Sequence record: PP047754
Strand: one strand, 5' to 3'
DNA: 64,000 bases
Origin: Escherichia phage KEP4
Positions 23,501 through 24,404 of this stretch are shown here, piece after piece. Both the position numbers and the translations under genes were made by a program. Below the pieces are notes generated by a model, which searched no databases, was not told the DNA's origin, and saw nothing but the letters and a program-made list of their open reading frames with translations. Position 1 is the first letter of the stretch. The number at the start of each line of letters is the position of its first letter.

Positions 23501-23829
23501 AAGATCCCCAAGTTAGTAAGGTAACGATAAAACAAGATTATAGACAGAAATCCAATTAACACCCAAGACGACAGGATAGGCTTGCAATTTAGCGTAGTCT
23601 TTCCATTGGGTATGTTAGGACTTCCAGTAATAACAACCGAATCCGTTTTAGCTCTCAGCGTCATGACAGAACCCATGAGGATGATTGGGCGCACATAATG
23701 TCCTTCATTATTGCGCTTTACGATACATGGTGAAGAAAATCGCAGGAACGGATCACCGCTTTTATAACCAAATAACTCGACCTTTTCTATTTCTTCGGGT
23801 ACTTTCTGACCAGGAAAGAATATTCTCAT
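23497..23829 (-). CDS. hypothetical protein (110 aa)
   Basis: ORF, overlapping stops/starts in the run. Confidence 0.4.
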
Positions 23830-24404
23830 AGCACAATTCCTAAATTTGTGTATAATAACTCAGCCAGGGTTACAGGACGCTTGAATTGTTCCCAACTGCA
23901 GTTCAGGTATTCGCGCTCTTCGCGAATATTTTCGTGAAGATGACCATGGATATTATACGCCCAACGGTCTAATTGATAAGGAACATGTGTTGTCAACACA
24001 CGGCCAACAGGCGTGTCACGTTCATACATAGCGCCGAAGGAGCTAATCCAGCCGTCCAGATACAGAGACAACAACATCTTAAAGCTGTCATGGTTGCCTT
24101 GTGCCACCCTGATGATAAAGTTCGGACGCCAGTCATCGGGGACGGGGCGGCGTTTGAACTCATCAATGTTTCGCTTGGCACCCTCCCGCATCAGGCGAAT
24201 GAACCCTTCAGCCCCGATGAAGCATATATCACCAGCCAGTTCAAGGACGTCCCGAGACTTCAATCCTTGGAAGATCGTGTCAATGACCGCAGCGTCATGG
24301 GCTTCCTGTGTATCAAATCCACGCGGTTTAAAGACCTTCTTATGCCCAAGGTGAGTGTCACCAAGGTACTTTACGATTCCCGCCATTATGGTTTCCTCAG
24401 CCAT
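23826..24404 (-). CDS. calcineurin-like metallophosphoesterase
   Basis: Motifs GDTHLG, GDICF, GNHD, GHLHEN. Confidence 0.65.

Follow-up and report, generated by a model that had tools for sequence, protein, structure and literature searches.

A COG4186-type metallophosphoesterase with conserved gene position in Ackermannviridae phages

The gene and its conservation

We analysed a 64,000-nucleotide (nt) stretch of DNA from Escherichia phage KEP4 (sequence record PP047754); this full stretch is called the window below, and all coordinates are numbered on it. Our subject is a minus-strand gene at 23826..24386 that encodes a protein of 186 amino acids (aa), a member of the calcineurin-like binuclear metallophosphoesterase superfamily and, within it, of the clade typified by COG4186 and AQ1665 of Aquifex aeolicus. 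An initial annotation, made from the sequence alone, had called the product a small calcineurin-like metallophosphoesterase with clear motifs. That description holds, as the five motifs are invariant among homologues, and an AlphaFold2 model and Foldseek searches agree with it.

The open reading frame (ORF) is genuine, apart from an over-extension of 18 nt at its 5' end. As initially annotated it ran from 23826 to 24404 on the minus strand, giving 192 aa when counted from the first ATG, which falls within the coding sequence (CDS) of the upstream gene in a different frame. We place the start 18 nt downstream, at 24386, because this start, with the N-terminus MAGIV, is common to all homologues and to the RefSeq annotation (BSP101 gp013, 'phosphoesterase'), because a GAGGA Shine-Dalgarno sequence at 24398..24394 lies 7 nt upstream of this ATG and because the ATG shares bases with the TAA stop of the upstream gene (TAATG). 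The 18 nt removed (24387..24404) are the 3' end of that upstream, YunG-like gene and hold the GAGGA sequence. At the other end, the TGA stop (23826-23828) shares bases with the ATG of the next gene (ATGA). The corrected protein matches PHROG 547 ('phosphoesterase') at E=1.3e-43. Two antisense ORFs overlap the gene on the plus strand, one of 176 aa at 23973..24503 and one of 113 aa at 24013..24354. In clustering, the only ORFs to join them are their antisense counterparts in closely related phages, and we therefore regard both as by-products of a conserved coding strand and not as genes.

The gene is anything but peculiar to this phage. The surrounding 5.5 kb are 99.5% identical to Salmonella phages ISTP3, LPST94 and BSP101 and match 206 phage records, nearly all from Kuttervirus (Ackermannviridae, Vi01-like); the protein of phage heyday is 100% identical. 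Other records name the product a metallophosphatase, a putative serine/threonine protein phosphatase or a hypothetical protein. Beyond Kuttervirus, the gene is syntenic in Taipeivirus (53% identity), Miltonvirus (39% in phiMAM1) and Agtrevirus, where phage EspM4VN also has the block, and in the genera examined it lies between topoisomerase II and dCMP deaminase. It thus behaves as a conserved gene of the family, whereas the small ORFs around it vary. Its synteny across Ackermannviridae genera sets it apart from variable accessory genes.

Not every deposited copy is intact. In Enterobacter phage EspM4VN (NC_049384, 601..1165), a one-base deletion at codon 21 leaves only a 121-aa C-terminal ORF annotated. 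As the remainder is 92% identical, with differences mostly at the third codon base, the deletion is likely to be a sequencing error or a very recent frameshift. Shortened versions of the gene also occur in other assemblies and in phage FEC14.

Clade assignment and active site

The window protein does not reach the gathering score of either Pfam metallophosphoesterase model (PF00149 or PF12850). This reflects divergence of the protein, with the fold still present. We built three alignments, of 11 close homologues (A1), 26 mixed homologues (A2) and 77 mostly distant ones (A3). Nine of the 26 members of A2 match PF00149 and nine of the 26 match PF12850 (E up to 0.01), the phage T5 homologue T5p033 passes the PF00149 cut-off of 21.5 bits with 27.7, and many further homologues bear precomputed assignments to one or other model. 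A profile search of 1.84 billion representative sequences returned 1,633 clusters (at 50% identity) with E<=0.001, 144 of them at <=1e-10, most of which comprise proteins of 155-200 aa; by tblastn, 696 phage records match.

Profile and structure searches, the subfamily check that the initial annotation had proposed, converge on COG4186/AQ1665. The family profiles match AQ1665 (1xm7) over its full length (E=1.4e-17 and 1.2e-22), the sole solved structure to be matched in this way. Foldseek likewise ranks 1xm7 first in the Protein Data Bank (PDB; E=3.9e-8, template modelling (TM) score 0.60), followed by GpdQ, Mre11, Rv0805, LpxH, YfcE and MJ0936 at TM 0.37-0.50, and all 50 of the top 50 PDB matches fall in the metallophosphoesterase superfamily. 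In contrast to AQ1665, SbcD/Mre11, GpdQ, Pseudomonas putida MPE and Rv0805 align by sequence to the N-terminal half only (E 3e-5 to 0.2). Among predicted viral structures (BFVD), the neighbours are 'phosphoesterases' at TM 0.68-0.91, from Serratia phage 2050H1, phiW-14, a T5-like phage, AR9, GAP32, a Listeria phage and Klebsiella phage Miami. The COG4186 annotation itself is carried by the T5 and Taipeivirus homologues.

AQ1665, described under COG4186 as a 'predicted phosphoesterase or phosphohydrolase', resembles the phage protein in size (195 aa) and in the extended motifs DxHxxH and HGHxH. At about 19% identity the match names a clade and not an activity, and the Ackermannviridae proteins have about 20 more residues between motifs II and III. 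T5p033 and its counterparts in phiW-14, AR9, GAP32, Listeria phage AG20 and Klebsiella phage Miami belong to the same clade, with 26-29% identity over 94% of the length and Foldseek TM scores of 0.68-0.75 to the phage protein. They differ from it in being shorter (155-175 aa), in lacking the Ackermannviridae insert and in their neighbours; T5p033 itself lies in the T5 early region and abuts an ApaH-like phosphatase. There, at 4132..5516 of the T5 genome (AY692264), two metallophosphoesterases adjoin, T5p034 of the ApaH-like serine/threonine phosphatase type, which matches PF00149 at 2.3e-16, and T5p033 of the COG4186 type.

The active-site motifs, all on the minus strand, are invariant in A1, A2 and A3. 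Motif I (G9-D10-T-H12-L-G-H15; 24342..24362) aligns with DTHFYH of 1xm7 and supplies two predicted metal ligands, D10 and H12, together with H15, a histidine invariant in this clade. Motif II (G52-D53; 24228..24233) would provide the metal-bridging aspartate, motif III (G97-N98-H99-D100; 24087..24098) a further predicted ligand, N98, and the presumed general acid, H99. Motif IV consists of the predicted ligand H134 (23985..23987), followed by an invariant P136, and motif V is H147-G-H149-L-H151 (23934..23948), in which H149 and H151 are predicted ligands and H147 is an additional clade-invariant residue. Outside these five motifs (GD10xH12, GD53, GNH99D, H134 and GH149xH151), the clade conserves H15 as part of DxHxxH, R22, H30-D31, R141, N145, H147 as part of HGHxH, Y160 and E166 (A2 and A3). 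Residues 57-90, between motifs II and III (24117..24218), make up a segment that exceeds its counterpart in the general family by about 20 residues, and distant matches skip profile positions ~60-92. In the Ackermannviridae-type sequences of A1 this segment holds invariant MREGA-x-RN and DWRP, and the structural model places helices at 58-73 and 75-78.

That model, built with AlphaFold2 on the 77-sequence alignment, has a predicted local distance difference test score (pLDDT) of 96.6 and a predicted TM score (pTM) of 0.91. Against two homologues of 95% protein identity, the nonsynonymous rate (dN) is 0.03-0.04 and the synonymous rate (dS) 0.94 and 1.6, so that dN/dS is 0.02-0.04. With the ligands intact and purifying selection this strong, the enzyme is almost certainly active. 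The isoelectric point (pI) of the protein is 6.7, close to the family median of 7.1.

As a finding the gene is ordinary: hundreds of phage genomes already have it on record as a phosphoesterase or metallophosphatase. What the analysis adds is the corrected start, the assignment to the COG4186/AQ1665 clade and the conclusion that the motifs do not justify the label 'serine/threonine protein phosphatase'. The clade, too, is known; both bacteria and large lytic phages carry it widely, and it is wholly uncharacterised. Our literature search (Kuttervirus, COG4186, aq_1665, T5 phosphoesterase) turned up no functional study of it. Since the family is so large and widespread, a single biochemical characterisation would annotate many genes.

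Genomic surroundings in the phage and across the family

The gene is the third of five tightly packed minus-strand genes that two terminator-like hairpins flank and that probably form one transcription unit. The first is a QueC-like PP-loop ATPase gene (24730..25392; PHROG 1550, a weak PF06508 match at 3.3e-5 and a C-terminal CxCxxC), and the second is the YunG-like gene (24386..24727; PF24591). After the metallophosphoesterase come a DUF7618 gene (23497..23829) and an ORF matching PHROG 4677 (23150..23500). On the same strand, a G+C-rich hairpin followed by a T run lies upstream of the unit at 25474..25491, and a second terminator-like hairpin lies at its downstream end, at 23108..23130. The scan that located them found 14 such sites against 7.0 +/- 3.1 in shuffled sequence; a scan for sigma-70-type promoters gave the same count as the shuffled expectation. 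DUF7618 and Phage_YunG-like are both recently defined Pfam families, and each of their genes shares 1-4 nt with the metallophosphoesterase gene, an arrangement suggestive of translational coupling.

The wider region is a long leftward block from topoisomerase II to dCMP deaminase and the head-completion gene gp4. It contains many small ORFs, the DexA exonuclease, the QueC-like ATPase and, further on, a MazG-like pyrophosphatase. In each of the four Ackermannviridae genera examined, no more than about 1.3 kb separates the QueC-like gene from the metallophosphoesterase gene; the annotations of the BSP101 genome include no other queuosine or preQ0 genes. Kuttervirus has, besides dCMP deaminase, a thymidylate-synthase-like gene and several MazG-like genes, and the phage has its own SbcD-like and Rad50-like proteins. 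The DNA ligase of BSP101 is about 9 kb away across the circular junction and does not adjoin the metallophosphoesterase.

For the clade at large, our survey of neighbours took in 86 loci, from 80 viral contigs, four metagenome contigs, T5 and the window. We clustered every ORF up to 8 kb from the gene, removed antisense artefacts, checked the clusters against Pfam and collapsed the loci to 47 groups at 60% identity. The neighbours that recur all lie on the metallophosphoesterase strand. They are dominated by the large subunit of ribonucleotide reductase (19 of 86 loci), an RNase H-like 3'-5' exonuclease (16), phage endonuclease I (13), Pol I (11), a dATP/dGTP diphosphohydrolase (10), a primase-helicase (10) and a 5'-3' exonuclease of the FEN type (9); Pol I and the primase-helicase were assigned by eye and not by Pfam. 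ThyX is found in 8 loci, an ApaH-like phosphatase in 8 (5 of the 47 groups), a different second metallophosphoesterase (254 aa) in another 9 and a deoxynucleoside monophosphate (dNMP) kinase in 7. Of the 47 groups, 18 have at least one replication or nucleotide-metabolism gene among the neighbours. A conserved partner gene did not emerge from the 86 loci, no neighbour exceeding 19 loci or 8 of the 47 groups, and none of their recurring neighbours is a signalling or anti-defence gene.

Relatives are common in bacteria as well, being encoded in at least 534 of the 600 candidate stretches examined. Across 80 bacterial loci no neighbour recurs beyond lineage-specific synteny, except for a second metallophosphoesterase in 10.

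In a few metagenomic phages, RtcB, Fic, NAMPT, CCA-adding enzyme, PTH2 or NADAR genes lie near the homologue, none of them recurrently. On one metagenome phage contig from the Joint Genome Institute (JGI; 1..6510), a distant homologue ends a block of PRPP-synthetase-like (phosphoribosyl pyrophosphate), DUF7831, NAMPT, Fic and RtcB genes, which resembles a phage module for reconstitution of nicotinamide adenine dinucleotide (NAD) with RNA-repair functions added.

Candidate substrates and biological role

We think it somewhat more probable than all alternatives combined that the protein is an active two-metal phosphodiesterase or phosphatase that serves phage DNA metabolism by acting on a nucleotide or a nucleic acid. 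From the alignments and from what is known of the superfamily, D10, H12, D53, N98, H134, H149 and H151 would hold two divalent metal ions, a hydroxide bridging the metals would attack the phosphoester and H99 of the GNHD motif would protonate the leaving group, a role assigned to it on the model of His113 in P. putida MPE (PMC7826289). The enzyme would be expressed from the leftward unit that comprises the QueC-like, YunG-like, metallophosphoesterase and DUF7618 genes and one further ORF, in what appears to be a T4-like early or middle region between topoisomerase II and dCMP deaminase, and there it would hydrolyse a nucleotide-derived or nucleic-acid phosphoester in the service of phage DNA and nucleotide metabolism.

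We favour such a substrate because both the genomic company of the gene and its nearest characterised relatives point there. Nucleotides or nucleic acids are the substrates of most superfamily members that have been characterised, and the nearest characterised family by sequence is the single-stranded DNA (ssDNA) endonuclease PdeM, to which 61 of the 77 members of A3 have weak matches. Within this reading our belief is divided roughly evenly between a small nucleotide and a single-stranded nucleic acid. Candidates of the first kind include a dNMP or deoxynucleoside diphosphate (dNDP) derivative, a 2',3'- or 3',5'-cyclic nucleoside monophosphate (cNMP) and a dinucleoside polyphosphate, and the near-neutral pI and the many conserved polar residues tilt slightly towards these. 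The second would involve processing of single-stranded nucleic acid or of ends in the manner of PdeM, towards which the PdeM-like N-terminal pattern tilts slightly.

Several observations weigh against assigning the protein to phage DNA and nucleotide metabolism. It has no characterised close relative, and 1xm7, the one structure solved for the clade, itself carries no assigned function. A family-wide conserved neighbour is absent, 29 of the 47 viral groups have no annotated replication or nucleotide-metabolism clusters, and the abundant bacterial relatives kept no neighbour across lineages in the 80 loci described above. The neighbourhood of a gene in phage early regions is, moreover, weak evidence of function. 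His81 of PdeM, essential for nuclease activity, corresponds to Phe56 here, and with a family pI of about 7 the proteins are not markedly basic. Finally, the known dNMP phosphatase of T5 is a separate protein, Dmp. We rejected identity with Dmp itself, as Dmp has no Pfam match and T5p033 is the T5 homologue of the window protein. An RNA-repair role, as a 2',3'-cyclic phosphodiesterase or a 3'-phosphatase acting with an RNA ligase, had been prompted by the RtcB, CCA-adding enzyme and PTH2 genes near metagenomic homologues; we rejected it for the phage, since BSP101 has no annotated RNA ligase or Pnkp and such neighbours do not recur.

The readings that compete with a role in phage DNA and nucleotide metabolism differ in how well they fit the clade. 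A cap-less endonuclease that cuts ssDNA or degrades host DNA, like PdeM/MPE or Gp48 of mycobacteriophage A10ZJ24, is unlikely, although several observations speak for it. PdeM and P. putida MPE (TIGR04123, 6nvo), Mn2+-dependent ssDNA endonucleases associated with a ligase, are small and cap-less (MPE is monomeric) and share with the phage protein the seven metal ligands, the general-acid histidine of GNH and an N-terminal D-x-H-L-G-[HK] followed by R-G. SbcD/Mre11 matches the N-terminal half at about 1e-5, DexA is encoded near the gene in the window phage and endonuclease I, FEN and exonucleases in other loci, and nuclease and counter-defence activity has been documented for one phage metallophosphoesterase (PMC12287305). 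Yet the protein scores only 17.9 bits on the PdeM model (E=0.0016) against a cut-off of 150, and the best family member reaches E=2.9e-10. P. putida MPE cannot act as a nuclease without the histidine three residues past the GD aspartate (His81; PMC7826289); here F56 takes its place, and close homologues have F or W at this position. The operon of Lhr, ligase and exonuclease is absent, the adjoining genes being QueC-like, YunG-like and DUF7618; the family pI is near neutral; and the phage already has an SbcD/Rad50 pair. A10ZJ24 Gp48 degrades host DNA and thereby silences defence genes, and is the sole phage metallophosphoesterase with a published counter-defence role (PMC12287305). Like the window protein, Gp48/Bxb1 gp47 is phage-encoded and has the five motifs, and it is expressed early with documented phosphodiesterase and nuclease activity (PMC12287305). 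It differs in being a 255-aa protein of another subfamily that is unrelated at the profile level (hhalign probability 0.6% against A3, with only GNHD aligned), so its function (PMC12287305) cannot be transferred, and we rejected that transfer. Identity with Mre11/SbcD was rejected as well: 186 aa is about half the length of those 333-407-aa chains, the N-terminal half alone aligns, and the protein lacks the capping domain and Rad50 partner of that type, the SbcD-like and Rad50-like proteins of the phage being separate. Less probable still is a serine/threonine (or tyrosine) protein phosphatase acting on host or phage proteins early in infection. Many GenBank records read 'putative serine/threonine protein phosphatase', and lambda phosphatase, from the same superfamily, is likewise a small enzyme. 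Against this, the phage protein has GDTHLGH, GDICFIG and GNHD where PPP enzymes have GDxHG, GDxVDRG and GNHE, and the relatives it matches best, AQ1665 and PdeM, lie outside the PPP group. In T5 and in 5 of the 47 groups, a separate ApaH/PPP-like enzyme (PF00149, 2.3e-16 in T5) adjoins the homologue, and genomes that encode both types imply two distinct functions.

The initial annotation had also called it conceivable that the enzyme degrades host immune signalling nucleotides, and this we consider highly improbable. Such an enzyme would perform the task of Acb1 or Apyc1 by means of another fold, and its candidate substrates would be cyclic GMP-AMP (cGAMP), other cyclic di- or trinucleotides, cCMP or cUMP, cyclic oligoadenylates and glycocyclic ADP-ribose (gcADPR). 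The fold is capable of the chemistry, and the superfamily includes cNMP phosphodiesterases (Rv0805 and CpdA), which are among the generic structural neighbours. A DarG-like macro-domain gene, plausibly an anti-defence gene, lies 2.4 kb upstream, and some metagenomic homologues adjoin NAMPT, PRPP-synthetase-like, Fic, RtcB or NADAR genes. But the class III cNMP phosphodiesterases and GpdQ share with the phage protein only the superfamily fold and metal site, at TM 0.37-0.48 and sequence E 4e-5 to 0.2 over the N-terminal half, and the cNMP enzymes are no closer than Mre11, LpxH, GpdQ and YfcE; for Rv0805 (E=0.2, TM 0.42), GpdQ, Mre11, LpxH and YfcE do as well or better. Acb1 has a 2H phosphoesterase fold, Apyc1 a metallo-beta-lactamase fold and AcrIII-1 a DUF1874 fold. 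We observed no homology of the metallophosphoesterase-fold phage protein to any of the three, nor would any be expected; they have in common with it only the hypothetical activity on a nucleotide second messenger. Nor do the other lines of evidence favour this role: the gene holds a conserved, core-like position in four genera, its recurring neighbours belong to replication and nucleotide metabolism, bacterial chromosomes widely carry relatives as stand-alone genes, a PADLOC scan of the protein gave no match, and a terminator-like hairpin stands between the macro-domain gene and the metallophosphoesterase. Our literature search did not link the clade to cyclic nucleotides or cyclic oligonucleotides. 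Subfamily, neighbours, synteny and literature thus lend the proposal no support. Assignment to the Mre11-type nucleases or to the protein phosphatases had been named as what would speak against it, and the protein belongs to neither, which leaves the immune-signal idea unsupported rather than refuted.

A further thread concerns phages that replace thymidine in their DNA. The dCMP deaminase and the thymidylate-synthase-like and MazG-like genes of Kuttervirus belong to this thread, homologues of the metallophosphoesterase are present in phiW-14 and AR9, and the phiMAM1 record notes similarity to gp187 of phiR1-37; all three, phiW-14, AR9 and phiR1-37, we take to be thymidine-replacing phages. 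Such phages were shown decades ago to induce a 5'-nucleotidase for deoxythymidine monophosphate (dTMP) or dNMPs, to which, to our knowledge, no gene was ever assigned. Taken together, we give only slight credence to the pair of ideas that COG4186-type enzymes are a new class that clears immune signals or that they are this dTMP/dNMP 5'-nucleotidase. Should the substrate prove to be an immune signal or dTMP, the enzyme would be of real interest, and in the former, improbable case COG4186-type enzymes would clear immune signals with a fold not yet known for that job.

The claim that the gene sits among anti-defence-like accessory genes survives only weakly, in one respect. The gene itself is syntenic and not variable, and the rest of the region consists of small ORFs without an assigned function, dCMP deaminase, DexA, the QueC-like ATPase, topoisomerase II and MazG, but the neighbour 2.4 kb upstream may fit the description. 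This minus-strand gene (26824..27429; 201 aa) is 'hypothetical' in RefSeq and a 'phosphatase' in PHROG 335, and its product is a DarG-like macro domain. The protein has no match in Pfam; searches pair it with PADLOC DarG (E=5.9e-11), the DarG macrodomain 5m3i (E=5.7e-5) and the macro domain 7omu (1.3e-4), and the gene is kept in Taipeivirus and Miltonvirus. To judge by these similarities, the macro-domain protein could reverse DarT-type ADP-ribosylation of DNA; if it does, its gene is plausibly a better anti-defence candidate than the metallophosphoesterase.

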